Shown here piece by piece: positions 3,197 through 30,860 of a DNA stretch of 64,000 bases; the first letter of the stretch is position 1, and each line of letters starts with the position of its first letter. Under the pieces are notes generated by a model. It worked only from the letters and a program-made list of their open reading frames with translations. It had not been told where the DNA came from and made no database searches. Origin of the DNA: Escherichia coli (GTDB lineage Bacteria > Pseudomonadota > Gammaproteobacteria > Enterobacterales > Enterobacteriaceae); NCBI RefSeq assembly GCF_030384885.1, contig NZ_CP128613.1; one strand, written 5' to 3'. The translations under genes and the position numbers were made by a program.

Positions 3197-3420
3197 GGTG
3201 TACGGTTCCTGCGAGATGGGAAAGTAAAAATCCGCGGCATGATATAGCAATTATCGATAATTAACATCCACACATTTTACGCTACATTTGCGCATTAAAA
3301 ATTATTTATTATTTACAAGCGCGGTAATTTCGCCCAGTCTTCAGCCACAAATTTTGGTTGCGGGCGAAAAAATGCGACAATACATACAATTGCCCGAATA
3401 GGTTGAAAAACAGGATTGAT

Positions 3421-4341
3421 ATGACGAATCTACCCAAGTTCTCCACCGCACTGCTTCATCCGCGTTATTGGTTAACCTGGTTGGGTATTGGCGTACTTTG
3501 GTTAGTCGTGCAATTGCCCTACCCGGTTATCTACCGCCTCGGTTGTGGATTAGGAAAACTGGCGTTACGTTTTATGAAACGACGCGCAAAAATTGTGCAT
3601 CGCAACCTGGAACTGTGCTTCCCGGAAATGAGCGAACAAGAACGCCGTGAAATGGTGGTGAAGAATTTCGAATCTGTTGGTATGGGGCTGATGGAAACCG
3701 GCATGGCGTGGTTCTGGCCAGACCGCCGGATCGCCCGCTGGACGGAAGTGATCGGCATGGAACACATTCGTGACGTGCAGGCGCAACAACGCGGCATCCT
3801 GTTAGTTGGCATCCATTTTCTGACTCTGGAGCTGGGTGCGCGGCAATTTGGTATGCAGGAACCCGGGATTGGCGTTTACCGCCCGAACGATAACCCACTG
3901 ATTGACTGGCTACAAACCTGGGGCCGTTTGCGCTCAAATAAATCAATGCTCGATCGCAAAGATTTAAAAGGCATGATTAAAGCCCTGAAAAAAGGCGAAG
4001 TGGTCTGGTACGCACCGGATCATGATTACGGCCCGCGCTCAAGCGTTTTCGTCCCGTTGTTTGCCGTTGAGCAGGCTGCGACCACAACCGGAACCTGGAT
4101 GCTGGCACGGATGTCCGGCGCATGTCTGGTGCCCTTCGTTCCACGCCGTAAGCCAGATGGCAAAGGGTATCAGTTGATTATGCTACCGCCAGAGTGTTCT
4201 CCGCCGCTGGATGATGCCGAAACCACCGCCGCATGGATGAACAAAGTGGTCGAAAAATGCATCATGATGGCACCAGAGCAGTATATGTGGTTGCACCGTC
4301 GCTTTAAAACACGTCCGGAAGGCGTTCCTTCACGCTATTAA
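3421..4341 (+). CDS. lpxL: Lipid A biosynthesis lauroyl acyltransferase (306 aa)
   Basis: ORF 3358-4341; start at [17 protein letters not shown] gives 306 aa; matches LpxL/HtrB as I recall it. Confidence 0.9.
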
Positions 4342-14276: not shown

Positions 14277-14656
<380 letters not shown>

Positions 14657-14657
14657 C

Positions 14658-15041
<384 letters not shown>

Positions 15042-15099
15042 ATTCTTCTCCCGAAAAAAAACAGGGCTTGCGCCCTGTTTCTTTAATACAGAGGATGTA

Positions 15100-15555
15100 T
15101 TAGTACTGATGAGCGGTCGCGTTGTTGCCAAAACCAACCTGAGTAACGTTTACGCTAGAGTTAGATGCAGTTTGATCAACTGCAGCACCGTTACCACCAC
15201 CAAACTGTTTAACAGTCATTTCAGAGTTTTTACCGTTCCACTGATCAAGAGTGGCACTGTTACCGAAGCCACGTTGGGTCAGATCGATTGAGCTGTCATC
15301 AGAGCCCTGACCAACATCTGCACCGTTACCGCCACCGTGCTGGGTAATCGTCAAGTCAGAGTTACGAGCATCAGTTTGCAGAGCAAGTGCAGAGTTACCA
15401 CCACCGTACTGGTAAATATTCAGCTCTGAATTTGGGCCGCTATTATTACCGCCACCGCCATGGTGACCACCACCGCCATACTGAGGAATAGAACCTGCCA
15501 GAGCGCTACCAGAGAATACGATTGCTGCAATTGCTGCTACTTTTAAAAGTTTCAT
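15100..15555 (-). CDS. csgA: Major curlin subunit CsgA (151 aa)
   Basis: Signal peptide followed by five imperfect S-x5-Q-x-G-x-G-N-x-A-x3-Q repeats (amyloid core). Confidence 0.95.
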   Translation of the reverse strand: MKLLKVAAIAAIVFSGSALAGSIPQYGGGGHHGGGGNNSGPNSELNIYQYGGGNSALALQTDARNSDLTITQHGGGNGADVGQGSDDSSIDLTQRGFGNSATLDQWNGKNSEMTVKQFGGGNGAAVDQTASNSSVNVTQVGFGNNATAHQY

Positions 15556-15595
15556 GTAAAACCCCCATCGGATTGATTTAAAAGTCGAATGGAAA

Positions 15596-16051
15596 TTAAC
15601 GTTGTGTCACGCGAATAGCCATTTGCGACTGTCTCTGCACTACAATTGCCGTTTTTTGAGTACCATACTGTGTAATATTTGCTTTATTACCAGAACCTTT
15701 CTGGATAATCATCGCAGTATTACCATAAGCACCTTGCGAAATACTGGCATCGTTGGCATTGCCCGCCTGATCAATATATGCAAGGTTATAATCTCCTGTC
15801 TGGTCAATCTTTGCCCGGTTGCTACTACCTTCTTGCGCAACAACCGCCAAAAGTTTTGAGCCTCCCTGCCGTAACTGAGCACTATTATTAGTCCCAGCTT
15901 GACCAATTATGGCTGCCTGATTAAATGAAGACTTACTCAATTCATTTACCGCGAAGTTATATTCTGAATTAGCTAAATCATAACCTGCTGCGGCTGCAAT
16001 CCCAGGCGCACCCAGTATTGTTAACATCATAAATAACAATTTGTTTTTCAT
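15596..16051 (-). CDS. csgB: Minor curlin nucleator subunit CsgB (151 aa)
   Basis: ORF 15596-16078; start at MKNKLLFMMLTILGAPGIAAA; curlin repeat units. Confidence 0.9.
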   Translation of the reverse strand: MKNKLLFMMLTILGAPGIAAAAGYDLANSEYNFAVNELSKSSFNQAAIIGQAGTNNSAQLRQGGSKLLAVVAQEGSSNRAKIDQTGDYNLAYIDQAGNANDASISQGAYGNTAMIIQKGSGNKANITQYGTQKTAIVVQRQSQMAIRVTQR

Positions 16052-16805
16052 GTTGTCACCCTGGACCTGGTCGTACATTTAAGAAATTAAATCATTTCAA
16101 CTTGGTTGTTAACGCAACCTGTATTTTGTTAACGCTGCGTTACGATGGAAAGTATGTCTGCGGAAATATTTTTAATAACTCACCCGCGCGTTGTATTTTT
16201 CTTTTTTTGTTCATACCAAAGTATTAAAACCCACGTAAATACGCTGTTATCTACGCAAAAAAATATTTTGTTTTCTTTTAAATTTCGGTTTTCCGCAATC
16301 AAAAATCACCAGACAGTCATTCTTCTTGCCCGTCGCTGATTGCTGCGATATGTCTTGCGCACAAGCCGTGACAAACCTCGTCTTTTTGCAGTAAAAAATT
16401 GTCCACGGAGGTGTGGAGAAAAAACAAGAACGTTTTACATGACGAAAGGACTACACCGAAATATTTTTTATATGCATTATTAGCAAGTTAGCACCATTTG
16501 TATGATTTTTTAAAATTGTGCAAGAAAAACCAAATGTACAACTTTTCTATCATTTCTAAACTTAATAAAACCTTAAGATTAACATTTTAATATAACGAGT
16601 TACATTTAGTTACATGTTTAACACTTGATTTAAGATTTGTAATGGCTAGATTGAAATCAGATGTAATCCATTAGTTTTATATTTTACCCATTTAGGGCTG
16701 ATTTATTACTACACACAGCAGTGCAACATCTGTCAGTACTTCTGGTGCTTCTATTTTAGAGGCAGCTGTCAGGTGTGCGATCAATAAAAAAAGCGGGGTT
16801 TCATC
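16052..16805. promoter_or_regulatory. csgB-csgD divergent intergenic control region
   Basis: ~750 bp AT-rich non-coding spacer between divergent csgBAC and csgDEFG; established as a densely regulated region (OmpR, CpxR, IHF, H-NS, MlrA, sRNA-targeted csgD leader). Individual sites not mapped here. Confidence 0.7.
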
Positions 16806-17456
<651 letters not shown>

Positions 17457-17460
17457 AGCC

Positions 17461-22348: not shown

Positions 22349-22436
22349 GGTGAGGTGTCCGAGTGGCTGAAGGAGCACGCCTGGAAAGTGTGTATACGGC
22401 AACGTATCGGGGGTTCGAATCCCCCCCTCACCGCCA
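22349..22436 (+). tRNA. serX: tRNA-Ser (anticodon GGA)
   Basis: GGTGAGGTGTCCGAGTGGCTGAAGGAGCACGCCTGGAAAGTGTG...GGTTCGAATCCCCCCCTCACCGCCA: class II tRNA with long variable arm, GGA in the anticodon loop, CCA 3' end. Confidence 0.9.
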
Positions 22437-22537
22437 TCTTTAAAGAAGAGCTCGTACGAAAGTACGGGCTTTTTTTTCGTATATTGCACACACCGGGGGG
22501 ATGAGAAGCCCCGACAGGGGTTCGACAACTGGCGACA
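22415..22537 (+). repeat. Direct repeat copy A: serX 3' end plus ~100 bp downstream
   Basis: Begins with the last 22 nt of the tRNA and includes a terminator-like hairpin (cgtacgaaagtacg + T8); near-identical to copy B. Confidence 0.75.
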
Positions 22538-22596
22538 GCCAGTTGGACAGACCGTGAACGCAGTGAGCGGGCTGCCCGCAGGGCGAGCGAAGCGAG

Positions 22597-22717
22597 TCAA
22601 TCCCCCCCTCACCGCCATCTTTAAAGAAGAGCTCGTACGAAGGTACGGGCTTTTTTTTCGTATATTGCACACACCGGGGGATGAAAAGCCCCGACCGGGG
22701 TTCGACAACTGGCGACA
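22597..22717 (+). repeat. Direct repeat copy B: duplicated serX 3' end and downstream segment
   Basis: ~97% identical to copy A (tcaatccccccctcaccgcca...ggcgaca); ends 3 nt before the dgcT stop codon. Confidence 0.75.
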
Positions 22718-22720
22718 AAC

Positions 22721-24088
22721 TCAATCATCATCCTTGCAGTTGATAAGAATTTCTGCCTCTTTTACAACTATCTTATTACGTCCGGTTTCTTTCGCTTCAT
22801 ATAGTGCATTATCAGCCATTCGATAGATTTCATTCGGATTTAACGCACTTCCCTGAGTCACCACAGCGCCAATGCTAATCGTCACTTTTTGCGGTATGGC
22901 GTATTCAGGATTATCGCCTGTCAAACGCTCTACATTTGCCCTTATCCTTTCGGCTAAAACTTTCGCGCTTTCAGTATCGGTCTCCGTCAGCAAGACGCCA
23001 AACTCTTCGCCGCCAACGCGTGCTAAAAGGTCATTTGGTCGTATGCTTTTCCCAATGATGCTCACCACTGTTTTTATCACCTGATCGCCAACCGGATGCC
23101 CCCACGTATCGTTAACTTTTTTAAAGTGATCGATATCCATAATCATGACACAATAAGACGTTTTTTGGGCTGATGCTGATTGAGCCTTCAGTTCATTGAA
23201 AAAATAATTCCTGTTAAATATATTAGTTAATGGATCGCGATGGGCAATGTTCTTTGTTACTCGTAGCGCACTGAAAATATGGCACATAAATATTACCATA
23301 ACGGTTAATTTACTGACTACTTCAATAGTGCGGCTAATATACCAAGTGGACACACTATACCTGCTCATAAATAACAGAGAGATATTATACAGCACGGCAC
23401 AGAAAGCAATCACTGATACTCCATTCCAGATATCACAGCGTAAACCATTAAAGTATAGATTAACCAAAAGCAAGATTAACCACATGAAAATCATTATGGT
23501 AACATATGAGGTTTTCCAGACTACCTGACCATTTTCATTTGTTAACTCGGCAATATGTAAACTGTAGTCATCATAATGACTACTTAGCATGTGAGCAACT
23601 GCCGCCCCCCCAAAAATAAAAAATAGACTTATACACAATGTCATTTTTTTGGAAAAAAAACAGCGTTTCTTATTGTTTTCACTAACTTTATTCACCAGCG
23701 CTAGCAATATTAACATGCACAAACTCATCTGACGAAACAAATAATAAATTGCAATATCATTTTGTACAACGCTGCTTATCAAATGCCCCTCAATAAATTG
23801 CTGAATGATAATGACAGTTTTAACAAAGTAAATCAAACAACTCAGAAACGCTAAACTAAGTATGCAGTTTGAAAATTGGACACGATCATAAATGAAATAC
23901 AATTGCATGAAAATAAATGCAACGGTATCGATAAAAAATAAAGCAATCATAACCATTAGATAGGTTGATCGTGGAACAACCTCCTCAACGGTTGGCTGAT
24001 TAAACCAACTATTTACCAAAACGAATGCAAGCCCAAACAATAAGCTCACCAATACAGTACTACTAATTCCCAAATAGTCTTTTTCCAT
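22721..24088 (-). CDS. dgcT: Membrane-anchored diguanylate cyclase, GGDEF domain (about 455 aa)
   Basis: ORF 22721-24178; start at MEKDYLGISSTVLVSLLFG; multiple N-terminal transmembrane helices and a C-terminal GGDEF domain with RVGGEEFGVLL; divergent from pgaA. Confidence 0.85.
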   Translation of the reverse strand: MEKDYLGISSTVLVSLLFGLAFVLVNSWFNQPTVEEVVPRSTYLMVMIALFFIDTVAFIFMQLYFIYDRVQFSNCILSLAFLSCLIYFVKTVIIIQQFIEGHLISSVVQNDIAIYYLFRQMSLCMLILLALVNKVSENNKKRCFFSKKMTLCISLFFIFGGAAVAHMLSSHYDDYSLHIAELTNENGQVVWKTSYVTIMIFMWLILLLVNLYFNGLRCDIWNGVSVIAFCAVLYNISLLFMSRYSVSTWYISRTIEVVSKLTVMVIFMCHIFSALRVTKNIAHRDPLTNIFNRNYFFNELKAQSASAQKTSYCVMIMDIDHFKKVNDTWGHPVGDQVIKTVVSIIGKSIRPNDLLARVGGEEFGVLLTETDTESAKVLAERIRANVERLTGDNPEYAIPQKVTISIGAVVTQGSALNPNEIYRMADNALYEAKETGRNKIVVKEAEILINCKDDD

Positions 24089-24442
24089 AAAGCTACACCA
24101 ATCTGTAGGTTGTAGATCCCTTTCTGTCACTAATAGATATAAGAACTGTACTGTTGTCAATATAAAAATCCACCACAAACAATACCAATGATGATAGTTG
24201 CAGACCGCAATTATTATTACCTTAGTGCTTTATACATTCTTCGCGACAAGACAGGCTTGCAAATACATATAAATGGTTATAAGGAAATCCTTATAAAACA
24301 TTAATTCATAGATATATTAGGAATAACAATTGAATCCGTGAGTACAGTAACGCTGCATTTCATCAGGACTTTCGAAAAATCCGATATCATGCATCGGAAT
24401 TTACTGATTTAATTATTTTAATCCTAATTTATTTTGAAAAAG

Positions 24443-24676
24443 GCATTGGGATTTATGCCGTATTCCTGAAGTTCCTCATCATTGGAATGGATTTTCGGGC
24501 GAGAAAAGGATTTTATATGGATACTCTACTCATCATTTCTTCTTCTCATCATCAACAATTCACGTCTCTCTTCCGCGTTTAATAACGGATTATGATGTGC
24601 AAAAAAATATCTTTCGTTTCAGTTACCTGTAATTAGATACAGAGAGAGATTTTGGCAATACATGGAGTAATACAGG
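24443..24676 (+). promoter_or_regulatory. pgaA leader / 5' UTR with multiple GGA motifs (candidate CsrA sites)
   Basis: Several GGA motifs (tggaatggatt, aaaggatt, atggatac, aacggatt, catggagt, acaggatg overlapping the SD/start). The pgaA leader is an established CsrA target; boundaries here are approximate. Confidence 0.5.
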
Positions 24677-27100
24677 ATGTATTCAAGTAGCAGAAAAAGG
24701 TGCCCGAAAACCAAATGGGCTTTGAAAATTCTTACTGCCGCATTTTTAGCAGCGAGTCCCGCGGCGAAGAGTGCTGTTAATAATGCCTATGATGCATTGA
24801 TTATCGAAGCTCGCAAGGGAAATACTCAGCCAGCTTTGTTATGGTTTGCACAAAAATCAGCACTCAGTAATAACCAAATTGCTGACTGGTTACAGATTGC
24901 CTTATGGGCCGGGCAAGATAAACAGGTTATTACCGTTTACAACCGCTACCGTCATCAGCAATTACCAGCGCGTGGTTATGCAGCTGTCGCCGTCGCTTAT
25001 CGTAACCTGCAACAATGGCAAAACTCGCTTACACTGTGGCAAAAGGCACTCTCTCTGGAGTCGCAAAATAAGGATTATCAACGGGGACAAATTTTAACCC
25101 TGGCAGATGCGGGTCACTATGATTCTGCGCTGGTTAAACTTAAGCAGCTTAACTCTGGAGCACCGGACAAAGCTAATTTACTCGCAGAAGCCTATATCTA
25201 TAAACTGGCGGGGCGGCATGAGGATGAATTACGGGCGATGACAGGGTCATTACCTGAAAATGCCTTAACGCAACAATATCCCACAGAATACGTGCAGGCA
25301 TTACGGAATAATCAACTTGCTGCCGCGATTGACGATGCCAATTTAACGCCAGATATTTGCGCTGATATTCATGCCGAACTGGTCAGACTGTCGTTTATGC
25401 CTACGCGCAGTGAAAGTGAACGTTATGCCATTGCCGATCGCGCCCTCGCCCAATACGCTGCATTAGAAATTCTGTGGCATGATAACCCTGACCGCACTGC
25501 CCAGTACCAGCGTATTCAGGTTGATCATCTTGGCGCGTTATTAACTCGCGATCGTTATAAAGACGTTATTTCTCACTATCAGCGTTTAAAAAAGACGGGG
25601 CAAATTATTCCGCCCTGGGCGCAATATTGGGTTGCGTCGGCTTATCTCAAAGAACATCAGCCAAAAAAAGCACAGTCAATAATGACAGAGCTCTTTTATC
25701 ACAAGGAGACCATTGCCCCGGATTTATCCGATGAAGAACTTGCGGATCTCTTTTACAGCCACCTGGAGAGTGAAAATTATCCCGGCGCGCTAACTGTCAC
25801 CCAACATACCATTAATACTTCGCCGCCTTTCCTTCGGTTAATGGGCACGCCTACGAGCATCCCGAATGATACCTGGTTACAGGGGCATTCGTTTCTCTCA
25901 ACCGTAGCAAAATATAGTAATGATCTTCCTCAGGCTGAAATGACAGCCAGAGAGCTTGCTTATAACGCACCAGGAAATCAGGGACTGCGCATTGATTACG
26001 CGAGTGTGTTACAAGCCCGCGGTTGGCCTCGTGCGGCAGAAAATGAATTAAAAAAAGCAGAAGTGATCGAGCCACGTAATATTAATCTGGAGGTTGAACA
26101 AGCCTGGACAGCATTAACGTTACAAGAATGGCAGCAGACAGCGGTCTTAACGCACGATATTGTCGAACGTGAACCGCAAGATCCCGGCGTTGTACGTTTA
26201 AAACGTGCGGTTGATGTACATAATCTTGCAGAGCTTCGTATCGCTGGTTCAACAGGAATTGATGCCGAAGGTCCGGATAGTGGCAAACATGATGTCGACT
26301 TAACCACCATCGTTTATTCACCACCGCTGAATGATAACTGGCGCGGTTTTGCTGGATTCGGTTATGCCGATGGACAATTTAGCGAAGGAAAAGGGATTAT
26401 TCGCGACTGGCTTGCGGGTGTTGAGTGGCGGTCACGTAATATCTGGCTTGAGGCGGAGTACACCGAACGCTTTTTCAATCATGAGCATAAACCCGGCGCG
26501 CGCCTGTCTGGCTGGTATGATTTTAATGATAACTGGCGTATTGGTTCGCAACTGGAACGCCTCTCTCACCGCGTTCCATTACGGGCAATGAAAAATGGTG
26601 TTACAGGCAACAGTGCACAGGCTTATGTTCGCTGGTATCAAAATGAGCGGCGTAAGTACGGTGTCTCTTGGGCTTTCACTGATTTTTCTGACAGTAATCA
26701 GCGTCATGAAGTCTCACTTGAGGGTCAGGAACGCATCTGGTCTTCACCATATTTGATTGTCGATATCCTCCCCAATCTGTATTACGAACAAAATACAGAA
26801 CACGACACCCCATACTACAACCCTATAAAAATGTTCGATATTGTTCCGGCATTTGAGGCAAGTCATTTGTTATGGCGAAGCTATGAAAATAGCTGGGAGC
26901 AAATCTTCAGCGCAGGTGTTGGTGCCTCCTGGCAAAAACATTATGGCACGGATGTCGTCACCCAACTCGGCTACGGGCAACGCATTAGCTGGAATGACGT
27001 GATTGATGCTGGCGCAACGCTACGCTGGGAAAAACGTCCTTATGACGGTGACAGAGAACACAACTTATACGTTGAATTCGATATGACATTCAGATTTTAA
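24677..27100 (+). CDS. pgaA: Poly-beta-1,6-GlcNAc export porin PgaA (807 aa)
   Basis: 807-aa ORF with signal peptide, TPR-like N-terminal half and beta-rich C-terminal half. Confidence 0.95.
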   Translation: MYSSSRKRCPKTKWALKILTAAFLAASPAAKSAVNNAYDALIIEARKGNTQPALLWFAQKSALSNNQIADWLQIALWAGQDKQVITVYNRYRHQQLPARGYAAVAVAYRNLQQWQNSLTLWQKALSLESQNKDYQRGQILTLADAGHYDSALVKLKQLNSGAPDKANLLAEAYIYKLAGRHEDELRAMTGSLPENALTQQYPTEYVQALRNNQLAAAIDDANLTPDICADIHAELVRLSFMPTRSESERYAIADRALAQYAALEILWHDNPDRTAQYQRIQVDHLGALLTRDRYKDVISHYQRLKKTGQIIPPWAQYWVASAYLKEHQPKKAQSIMTELFYHKETIAPDLSDEELADLFYSHLESENYPGALTVTQHTINTSPPFLRLMGTPTSIPNDTWLQGHSFLSTVAKYSNDLPQAEMTARELAYNAPGNQGLRIDYASVLQARGWPRAAENELKKAEVIEPRNINLEVEQAWTALTLQEWQQTAVLTHDIVEREPQDPGVVRLKRAVDVHNLAELRIAGSTGIDAEGPDSGKHDVDLTTIVYSPPLNDNWRGFAGFGYADGQFSEGKGIIRDWLAGVEWRSRNIWLEAEYTERFFNHEHKPGARLSGWYDFNDNWRIGSQLERLSHRVPLRAMKNGVTGNSAQAYVRWYQNERRKYGVSWAFTDFSDSNQRHEVSLEGQERIWSSPYLIVDILPNLYYEQNTEHDTPYYNPIKMFDIVPAFEASHLLWRSYENSWEQIFSAGVGASWQKHYGTDVVTQLGYGQRISWNDVIDAGATLRWEKRPYDGDREHNLYVEFDMTFRF

Positions 27101-27108
27101 GGATAAAT

Positions 27109-29127
27109 ATGTTACGTAATGGAAATAAATATCTCCTGATGCTGGTGAGTATAATTATGCTCACTGCGTGCATTAGCCAGTCAAGAACATCATTTATACC
27201 GCCACAGGATCGCGAATCTTTACTCGCCGAGCAACCGTGGCCGCATAATGGTTTTGTGGCGATTTCATGGCATAACGTTGAAGACGAAGCTGCCGACCAG
27301 CGTTTTATGTCAGTGCGGACATCAGCACTGCGTGAACAATTTGCCTGGCTGCGCGAGAACGGTTATCAACCGGTCAGTATTGCTCAAATTCGTGAAGCAC
27401 ATCGAGGAGGAAAACCGCTACCGGAAAAAGCAGTAGTGCTGACTTTTGATGACGGCTACCAGAGTTTTTATACCCGCGTCTTCCCAATTCTTCAGGCCTT
27501 CCAGTGGCCTGCTGTATGGGCCCCCGTCGGCAGTTGGGTCGATACGCCAGCGGATGAACAAGTAAAATTTGGCGATGAGATGGTCGATCGAGAATATTTT
27601 GCCACGTGGCAACAAGTGCGAGAAGTTGCGCGTTCCCGGCTCGTTGAGGTCGCTTCTCATACATGGAATTCTCACTACGGTATTCAGGCTAATGCCACCG
27701 GCAGCTTATTGCCTGTATATGTAAATCGTGCATATTTTACTGACCACGCACGGTATGAAACCGCAGCAGAATACCGGGAAAGAATTCGTCTGGATGCTGT
27801 AAAAATGACGGAATACCTGCGTACAAAGGCTAAGGTAAATCCACACGTTTTTGTTTGGCCTTATGGTGAAGCGAATGGCATAGCGATAGAGGAATTAAAA
27901 AAACTCGGTTATGACATGTTCTTCACCCTTGAATCAGGTTTGGCAAATGCGTCACAATTGGATTCCATTCCGCGAGTATTAATCGCCAATAATCCCTCAT
28001 TAAAAGAGTTTGCCCAGCAAATTATTACCGTACAGGAAAAATCATCACAACGGGTAATGCATATCGATCTTGATTACGTTTATGACGAAAACCGCCAGCA
28101 AATGGATCGCAATATTGATGTGCTAATTCAGCGGGTGAAAGATATGCAAATATCAACCGTGTATTTGCAGGCATTTGCTGATCCCGATGGTGATGGGCTG
28201 GTCAAAGAGGTCTGGTTTCCAAATCGTTTGCTACCAATGAAAGCAGATATTTTTAGTCGGGTTGCCTGGCAATTACGTACCCGCTCAGGTGTAAACATCT
28301 ATGCGTGGATGCCGGTATTAAGCTGGGATTTAGATCCCACATTAACGCGAGTAAAATATTTACCAACAGGGGAGAAAAAAGCACAAATTCATCCTGAACA
28401 ATATCGCCGTCTATCTCCTTTTGATGACAGGGTCAGAGCACAAGTTGGCATGTTATATGAAGATCTTGCCGGACATGCTGCTTTTGATGGCATATTGTTC
28501 CACGATGATGCTTTGCTTTCAGATTATGAAGATGCCAGTGCACCGGCTATCACGGCTTATCAGCAAGCAGGCTTTAGCGGGAGTCTGAGCGAAATTCGAC
28601 AAAACCCGGAGCAATTTAAACAGTGGACCCGCTTTAAAAGTCGTGCGTTAACTGACTTCACTTTAGAACTTAGTGCGCGCGTAAAAGCCATTCGCGGTCC
28701 ACATGTTAAAACTGCACGAAATATTTTTGCACTTCCGGTAATACAACCTGAAAGTGAAGCCTGGTTTGCACAGAATTATGCTGATTTCCTAAAAAGCTAT
28801 GACTGGACCGCTATTATGGCTATGCCTTATATGGAAGGTGTCGCAGAAAAATCGGCTGACCAATGGTTAATACAATTGACCAATCAAATTAAAAACATCC
28901 CTCAGGCTAAAGACAAATCTATTTTAGAATTACAGGCACAAAACTGGCAGAAAAATGGTCAGCATCAGGCTATTTCTTCGCAACAACTCGCTCACTGGAT
29001 GAGCCTATTACAACTGAATGGAATGAAAAACTATGGTTATTATCCCGACAATTTTCTGCATAACCAACCTGAAATAGACGTTATTCGTCCTGAGTTTTCA
29101 ACAGCCTGGTATCCGAAAAATGATTAA
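27109..29127 (+). CDS. pgaB: Poly-beta-1,6-GlcNAc N-deacetylase lipoprotein PgaB (672 aa)
   Basis: 672-aa ORF; lipobox LTAC; polysaccharide deacetylase-like motifs (TFDDGY). Confidence 0.95.
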
Positions 29128-30445
29128 TCGCATCGTATCGTTTTTTATATTATGTCTGGTGTTATGCATACCCCTATGCGTAGCGTACTTTCACTCTGGT
29201 GAACTGATGATGAGGTTCGTTTTCTTCTGGCCGTTTTTTATGTCCATTATGTGGATTGTTGGCGGCGTCTATTTCTGGGTCTATCGTGAACGCCACTGGC
29301 CGTGGGGAGAAAACGCACCAGCTCCCCAGTTGAAAGATAATCCGTCTATCTCCATTATCATTCCCTGTTTTAATGAGGAGAAAAACGTTGAGGAAACCAT
29401 ACACGCCGCTTTAGCACAGCGTTATGAGAACATTGAAGTTATTGCCGTAAATGACGGTTCAACAGACAAAACCCGTGCCATCCTGGATCGCATGGCTGCA
29501 CAAATTCCCCACCTGCGGGTCATTCATCTGGCGCAAAACCAGGGGAAAGCCATTGCGCTTAAAACCGGAGCTGCCGCGGCGAAAAGTGAATATCTGGTGT
29601 GCATTGATGGCGATGCGTTATTAGACCGCGATGCGGCGGCATATATTGTGGAACCGATGTTGTACAACCCGCGTGTGGGTGCCGTAACCGGTAATCCTCG
29701 TATTCGAACACGTTCTACCCTGGTGGGTAAAATTCAGGTTGGCGAGTATTCCTCAATTATTGGTTTGATCAAGCGAACCCAGCGTATCTATGGAAACGTA
29801 TTTACCGTTTCTGGTGTTATTGCCGCATTTCGTCGCAGCGCCCTGGCAGAAGTGGGTTACTGGAGTGACGATATGATCACCGAAGATATTGATATTAGCT
29901 GGAAGCTGCAGTTGAATCAGTGGACGATTTTTTACGAGCCACGGGCGCTGTGCTGGATATTAATGCCTGAAACGTTAAAAGGGCTGTGGAAACAGCGCCT
30001 GCGCTGGGCTCAGGGCGGTGCAGAAGTATTCCTCAAAAATATGACAAGGCTATGGCGCAAAGAAAACTTTCGAATGTGGCCACTGTTTTTTGAATACTGT
30101 CTGACGACAATATGGGCCTTTACCTGCCTGGTCGGTTTCATTATTTACGCAGTCCAACTTGCAGGTGTACCGTTAAATATTGAATTGACACATATCGCTG
30201 CGACACATACTGCCGGAATATTACTGTGTACGTTATGTTTACTGCAATTTATTGTCAGCCTGATGATCGAGAATCGCTATGAGCATAATCTGACTTCATC
30301 GCTTTTCTGGATTATTTGGTTCCCGGTTATTTTCTGGATGCTGAGCCTGGCAACGACATTGGTATCATTTACACGAGTCATGTTGATGCCTAAAAAGCAA
30401 CGCGCCCGTTGGGTAAGTCCCGATCGAGGGATTCTGAGAGGTTAA
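29120..30445 (+). CDS. pgaC: Poly-beta-1,6-GlcNAc synthase, GT2 glycosyltransferase PgaC (441 aa)
   Basis: 441-aa ORF with GT2 motifs ([11 protein letters not shown]); overlaps the pgaB end by 8 nt. Confidence 0.95.
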
Positions 30446-30446
30446 T

Positions 30447-30860
30447 ATGAACAATTTAATTATTACGACCCGACAATCGCCAGTACGTTTAATGGTTGAT
30501 TATGTTGCCACAACCATCTTATGGACATTATTTGCTTTGTTCATATTCTTATTCACCATGGATCTGCTGACGGGTTATTACTGGCAAAGTGAGGCCAGAA
30601 GCCGACTTCAGTTCTATTTTTTGCTGGCAGTGGCGAATGCCGTCGTGTTAATTGTCTGGGCGCTGTACAATAAGCTGCGTTTTCAAAAACAGCAGCATCA
30701 TGCAGCCTACCAATATACGCCGCAAGAATATGCAGAGAGCTTAGCAATACCTGATGAGCTCTATCAGCAACTACAAAAAAGCCACAGGATGAGCGTACAC
30801 TTCACCAGCCAAGGGCAAATAAAAATGGTTGTTTCAGAAAAAGCGCTAGTCCGGGCATAA
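30447..30860 (+). CDS. pgaD: PGA synthesis accessory protein PgaD (137 aa)
   Basis: 137-aa ORF with two transmembrane segments, immediately after pgaC. Confidence 0.9.

Follow-up and report, generated by a model that had tools for sequence, protein, structure and literature searches.

The pgaABCD mRNA leader of an Escherichia coli chromosome as a natural allele of the CsrA-controlled K-12 leader

The intergenic region between dgcT and pgaA on the Escherichia coli chromosome studied here is the site of a GGA-rich stretch, which raises the question of whether the DNA directly ahead of pgaA encodes a CsrA-controlled mRNA leader and, if it does, whether its control would follow the course described for strain K-12. 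CsrA repression of pgaABCD through six leader sites was reportedly described by Wang in 2005, as summarised in later papers. We addressed the question within a 64-kb stretch of DNA, hereafter referred to as the window, by comparison with the K-12 locus, with other E. coli alleles and with more distant pga operons.

In K-12, six CsrA-binding sites are distributed over the 234-nt pgaA untranslated region (PMC4052769, PMC7652899). The distal two lie over the Shine-Dalgarno sequence as well as the AUG and bring about translational repression (PMC4052769, PMC7652899). The two 5'-proximal sites are located in an imperfect hairpin, within its left arm (+61 to +81), and deletion of this arm removes both of them; the right arm (+82 to +107) constitutes the 5' half of a Rho utilisation (rut) site (PMC4052769). 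CsrA opens the hairpin and exposes the rut site, which results in Rho-dependent termination within the leader (PMC4052769; reviewed in PMC7652899). A bubble in which C exceeds G spans +50 to +130, and the stability of the hairpin is deliberately borderline (PMC4052769). Strain-dependent behaviour has been described in E. coli C, and the K-12 model seemingly does not hold unchanged in every strain (PMC3571907; PMC8151843).

The dgcT-pgaA region and its alignment with K-12

The locus comprises the following features, by window coordinates:

22721-24088, minus strand: dgcT (ycdT), encoding a GGDEF protein, DgcT orthologue
24441-24676, plus strand: pgaABCD 5' untranslated leader, 236 nt (234 nt in K-12), +1 placed by homology
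24601-24607, plus strand: run of seven A (five in K-12), of strain-variable length
24677-27100, plus strand: pgaA, 807 aa, full length, ATG at 24677-24679
27109-29127, plus strand: pgaB, 672 aa, full length
29120-30445, plus strand: pgaC, 441 aa, full length
30447-30860, plus strand: pgaD, 137 aa, full length

As at the K-12 locus, dgcT lies on the opposite strand and is followed by pgaABCD, and the pga genes are observed to be intact. PgaA, PgaB, PgaC and PgaD all match NCBIfam equivalogs with scores above the curated cut-offs (PgaA is NF007468, at 1439.6 bits versus a cut-off of 1043), and PgaA is 98% identical to the MG1655 protein. The adjacent diguanylate cyclase named by an earlier sequence-only reading of this DNA is indeed the orthologue of DgcT (YcdT), with a protein identity to K-12 DgcT of only 90%. 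The genes csrA, csrB/C, mcaS, nhaR and rho are all located outside the 64-kb window.

The leader aligns collinearly and end to end with its K-12 counterpart (positions 3262-3495 of the K-12 sequence L001), with 97.1% identity and no rearrangement. In K-12, +234 is the final nucleotide ahead of the pgaA ATG (PMC3571907), which places the K-12 +1 at L001 3262, and the homologous +1 of the window at 24441 rather than 24443, since the A-run contains two extra A. Apart from this 2-nt insertion, which accounts for the length of 236 nt, the window differs from K-12 by the substitutions A>U at +32, C>U at +82, G>A at +88 and G>U at +156, and by a fifth, U>G, at K-12 +174 (window +176). The window and K-12 leaders are identical in all GGA motifs, in the hairpin's bottom stem and in the rut region, as well as in the Shine-Dalgarno sequence and at the start codon. 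The alignment was also the check proposed for loss of the mapped CsrA sites: no GGA has been lost, and all eight are retained. Judged on sequence grounds, this homology is the decisive evidence, rather than any count of motifs. We conclude that the leader is an orthologue of the K-12 pgaABCD mRNA leader and most likely works as it does in K-12, with a probability of roughly 0.92. The feature is thus already known and was correctly recognised; it is not a discovery. Rfam contains no family matching the pgaA leader.

Within the 82 nt that precede the homologous +1, a single base distinguishes the window from K-12. A consensus scan found no sigma-70-like promoter at the inferred start, 24441; this is what one would anticipate of an NhaR-activated promoter, although it does not confirm one. 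A perfect inverted repeat, TCCGAT-N7-ATCGGA, lies at 24380-24398, with its centre about 52 nt upstream of the inferred start; the K-12 version has five of six matches (TCCGAA), and on the minus strand the repeat scores as a terminator-like hairpin. It may represent an activator (NhaR) box.

Several further observations concern the surroundings of the leader. Divergence from K-12 is much higher at 22721-24358, that is, in dgcT and the stretch of intergenic DNA next to it, than in the flanking DNA; it reaches about 12% at the DNA level in 24179-24358, against at most 3% in the pgaA promoter core and leader. The switch near 24358, about 80 nt upstream of the pgaA transcription start, suggests an old recombination boundary. 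The final 60 nt before the dgcT start are the same as in K-12 although their surroundings have diverged, and a AAGGGAUC motif is kept about 30 nt ahead of the dgcT ATG (minus strand, 24117-24119); dgcT (ycdT) is also a reported CsrA target. In the closest complete genome, that of strain 2013C-4282, pgaA carries a TGG>TAG change (W14*; L002 8539, corresponding to window 24717), and owing to this stop the RefSeq pgaA of that genome is shorter, with its start 45 nt downstream; the TGG at 24717 is intact in the window. A tRNA-Ser followed by an RtT-like element occupies 22349-22617; the Rfam RtT match scores 41.7 bits versus a gathering threshold of 45, and RefSeq annotates an RtT sRNA at the matching element of the nearest genome. 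The window also includes, within 14278-17457, csgD with a long leader and ymdA, a published example of translational activation via CsrA (PMC7492729).

Leader structure and natural variation

Three structural elements of the leader are needed for what follows:

24442-24459, plus strand: 5'-terminal hairpin (GGCAU/AUGCC) with a GGA (24449-24451, +9) in its 8-nt loop, from a Vienna fold
24501-24547, plus strand: CsrA-sensitive anti-terminator hairpin (+61 to +107), from PMC4052769 and folds
24522-24570, plus strand: C-rich, G-poor rut region (+82 to +130), with 17 C versus 1 G

Natural variation was followed in an alignment of ten alleles, in which eight further ones from E. coli were set beside those of the window and K-12. 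The 5'-terminal hairpin has a predicted energy of -6.7 kcal/mol and leaves its loop GGA largely unpaired (P(unpaired) 0.75-0.97, Vienna), and its stem is kept through one natural C-G to U-G change. Across the ten alleles 20 leader positions vary, none of which falls among the 24 GGA nucleotides; this avoidance of GGA cores is not significant by itself in a sample of ten alleles (P=0.11).

The anti-terminator region of the window is foldable, as is that of K-12, and the base composition of the rut region can be read directly from the window. ViennaRNA gives -6.4 kcal/mol for the two-stem K-12 structure and -6.0 kcal/mol for the window, where the bottom stem is similar to that of K-12 and the top is rearranged. 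All 10 pairs of the bottom stem are invariant in the ten-allele alignment. In the upper stem, position 82 of K-12 pairs with position 88, and the window holds both changes, so that C82-G88 becomes U82-A88; the alignment contains this double change in three sequences and a broken pair in one (O145:H28, C·A). As the sole change in the CsrA-sensitive stem of the window retains the base pair, it appears to lend weak natural support to the published hairpin. We rejected C82U/G88A as strong covariation evidence, since the two sites are tightly linked and changed in one evolutionary event.

The frequency of these haplotypes was determined with exact 71-nt probes (+50 to +120) in 4163 leader-bearing E. 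coli genomes:

K-12 type, C82/G88: 3226 of 4163 genomes
Window type, U82/A88: 377 of 4163 genomes (about 9%)
C82/A88 in the consensus background: 0 of 4163 genomes
U82/G88 in the consensus background: 0 of 4163 genomes
O145 type, A58 with C82/A88: 29 of 4163 genomes

Over the full leader, the window allele was found at a match of at least 99% in 194 of 4169 genomes. These counts identify the window leader as a minority natural allele of the known pgaA leader.

The length of the A-run, which lies between the +147 GGA and the Shine-Dalgarno sequence in the zone of Rho-dependent termination mapped in K-12, is five in K-12, O157, O145, JJ2434 and ZLWT, six in two poultry isolates, seven in the window, eight in Z226-7 and nine in Z1002.

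The allele could conceivably be CsrA-controlled with a set-point that differs from that of K-12. According to this reading the minority combination of U82/A88, U32, U156, the A7 tract and G176 would weaken the upper stem and favour the open, Rho-sensitive state, thus lowering PGA expression relative to K-12. The K-12 structure imposed on the window sequence does lose stability (-4.9 versus -6.4 kcal/mol), upper-stem pair probabilities drop from about 0.7 to about 0.3, and published mutants with a destabilised upper stem bind CsrA better and terminate more (PMC4052769); moreover, the haplotype is exact over +50 to +120 in the 377 genomes listed above. However, the minimum free energies and ensemble energies of the two alleles differ by just 0.3-0.4 kcal/mol, which is inside the error of the method, and the exchange of C-G for U-A formally keeps the pair, which suggests that function is preserved. 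We consider a shifted set-point unlikely. Slightly less probable still is the proposal that U82-A88 together with the expanded, length-variable A-tract acts as a natural tuning variant that tips the equilibrium of the closed hairpin with its open, CsrA/Rho-sensitive form; were it true, it would lead to lineage-specific basal PGA production.

GGA motifs and probable CsrA sites

Under the preferred reading, that of a K-12-like CsrA-controlled leader, the motifs of interest in addition to the loop GGA at +9 are:

24484-24491, plus strand: two GGA (+44 and +49; UUGGAAUGGA), upstream of the first mapped CsrA pair, invariant in ten alleles
24508-24510, plus strand: GGA core of AAGGA (+68), first mapped CsrA site, in the +61 to +81 left arm, same as in K-12
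24519-24521, plus strand: GGA core of AUGGA (+79), second mapped CsrA site, followed by U (C in K-12)
24587-24589, plus strand: GGA at +147 (ACGGA), invariant in ten alleles and identical to K-12
24664-24667, plus strand: Shine-Dalgarno GGAG, core of the CsrA site over the ribosome-binding site
24675-24679, plus strand: GGAUG, with a GGA across the pgaA start codon, most distal CsrA site

Seven GGA start on the plus strand between 24443 and 24676 (at 24449, 24484, 24489, 24508, 24519, 24587 and 24664), and an eighth, at 24675-24677, shares the A of the pgaA ATG; five of these eight fit ANGGA. At least six had been claimed ahead of pgaA, in agreement with the seven within this interval and the one across the start codon. 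A single motif, in the octamer acaggatg (found at 24672-24679), had further been described as overlapping the Shine-Dalgarno sequence as well as the start codon; its overlap with the start codon (24675) stands, whereas the Shine-Dalgarno sequence is covered by a separate GGA (24664). The segment that includes both sites, AUGGAGUAAUACAGGAUG (24662-24679), is identical in K-12 and eight further alleles. The two motifs of each pair, 24508/24519 and 24664/24675, are spaced by 11 nt, within the 10-63 nt range over which a CsrA dimer can bridge (PMC4052769). Taken generically, the leader has the arrangement sought in CsrA/RsmA targets, namely two or more GGA/ANGGA motifs separated by 10-63 nt, one of which lies at the ribosome-binding site.

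The identification of these motifs as CsrA sites holds in so far as they belong to a sequence orthologous to the K-12 leader with its mapped sites, but not every GGA is a mapped site. Those at +9, +44 and +49 lie outside the mapped set, as they are upstream of the 5'-proximal pair at +61 to +81 (PMC4052769). The GGA at +147 (ACGGA) is probably the third mapped site, and the candidate for the fourth is the GGA-less ACAGAGAGAGA stretch near +200, where the window is identical to K-12.

The number of GGA motifs exceeds the expectation for 234 nt, both from mononucleotide composition (2.3) and from the mean across the 64-kb window (2.7), and eight are reached by just 0.76% of 239-nt sliding windows (both strands, 64 kb). 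Dinucleotide-preserving shuffles of the leader, on the other hand, already yield 4.5±1.4 GGA, with P(>=7)=0.077, and about 170 nt of untranscribed DNA directly upstream of +1 contain four. Enrichment above chance is therefore modest to marginal, and the raw count is weak evidence by itself because the untranscribed upstream DNA is nearly as GGA-rich. From these numbers it might be argued that the cluster is a by-product of a local AT-rich and GGA-rich composition in which several motifs are idle, a view to which one may add that the mapped sites do not include the three GGA closest to the 5' end and that no more than a background of one to four upstream GGA is seen in distant pgaA homologues (plasmid-borne or from Klebsiella and Plesiomonas). 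Five of the motifs, however, match experimentally mapped sites of the orthologous sequence, and the density of ANGGA, with five in the leader, is the maximum over the whole 64 kb and is attained nowhere else. Such an explanation is tenable for single motifs but not for the entire leader, and as an account of the leader we hold it to be very improbable.

The leader also contains a short open reading frame:

24517-24582, plus strand: 21-codon upstream ORF (MDTLLIISSSHHQQFTSLFRV) within the leader

Control via translation of this ORF, whose AUG overlaps the second CsrA site, can practically be dismissed: K-12 and the window share an intact ORF with an identical peptide, both hairpin substitutions being synonymous third-position changes (C82U, GAC>GAT; G88A, CTG>CTA), but two non-synonymous changes and a frameshift are found in it among other natural alleles, so that the ORF does not look to be under selection, and a published AUG mutant largely refutes the idea, on which combined grounds the ORF was rejected as a regulatory element.

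Proposed control and comparison with known systems

In the CsrA-controlled leader that we favour, the start of transcription, binding of CsrA, termination by Rho and repression of translation are all carried over from the K-12 literature. The transcript would begin about 236 nt ahead of pgaA. When free CsrA is abundant, a dimer would occupy the AAGGA/AUGGA pair (+68 and +79) and melt the marginally stable hairpin (+61 to +107), exposing the C-rich rut region, upon which Rho would end transcription within the leader. Transcripts that escape would be bound by a second dimer spanning the GGA of the Shine-Dalgarno sequence (24664) and that of the start codon (24675), which would block the ribosome and destabilise the mRNA. 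Titration of CsrA by CsrB, CsrC or McaS would keep the hairpin closed and allow read-through and pgaA translation. The sequence-only reading had described the control as translational; this fits the distal pair, but control would not be solely translational, as the proximal pair acts via Rho-dependent termination. Its expectation that this strain has "normal" control reaches further than the window allows, since the trans-acting partners are encoded elsewhere and the allele differs from that of K-12.

All cis-elements for CsrA repression of PGA-dependent biofilm formation and for its release by CsrB, CsrC and McaS are present. Multi-tier control by CsrA has a textbook example in the pgaA leader, of which the window holds a fully intact copy. 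The relevance of this result extends little past correct annotation, with a population view of the leader, in which the GGA cores are fixed across ten alleles, as a mild by-product.

The conservation of the leader was also considered outside E. coli. A scan of species-representative genomes for leaders of other Escherichia with the rut-region 20-mer CTTCTTCTCATCATCAACAA gave six unrelated chance matches and no Escherichia. A PGA machinery of the same four genes is also specified by distant pgaABCD operons, which occur on IncX1/IncFIB plasmids as well as in Klebsiella pneumoniae and Plesiomonas (pgaA and pgaB annotated); their PgaA proteins are only 34-38% identical, and their upstream regions are unrelated and contain one to four GGA. 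No sign of an E. coli-type leader was detected upstream of these distant pgaA homologues, and in one of them the upstream region is an IS5 gene. The comparison of distant upstream regions speaks neither for nor against the E. coli leader. It did bring to light a second, distant pgaABCD family on IncX1, IncY-named and IncFIB plasmids of E. coli, Enterobacter and Klebsiella (L017 1390-3852, L020 1372-3834), which often adjoins IS26 or a LuxR-type regulator and is without a GGA-rich leader.

Another known system is the E. coli glgC leader, the classical target of translational repression by CsrA, in which, as in that of pgaA, a CsrA dimer bridges two GGA motifs, one of them on the Shine-Dalgarno sequence, and competes with the 30S subunit (PMC7652899). 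Unlike glgC, with its two sites and purely translational control, pgaA combines six sites with Rho-dependent attenuation.
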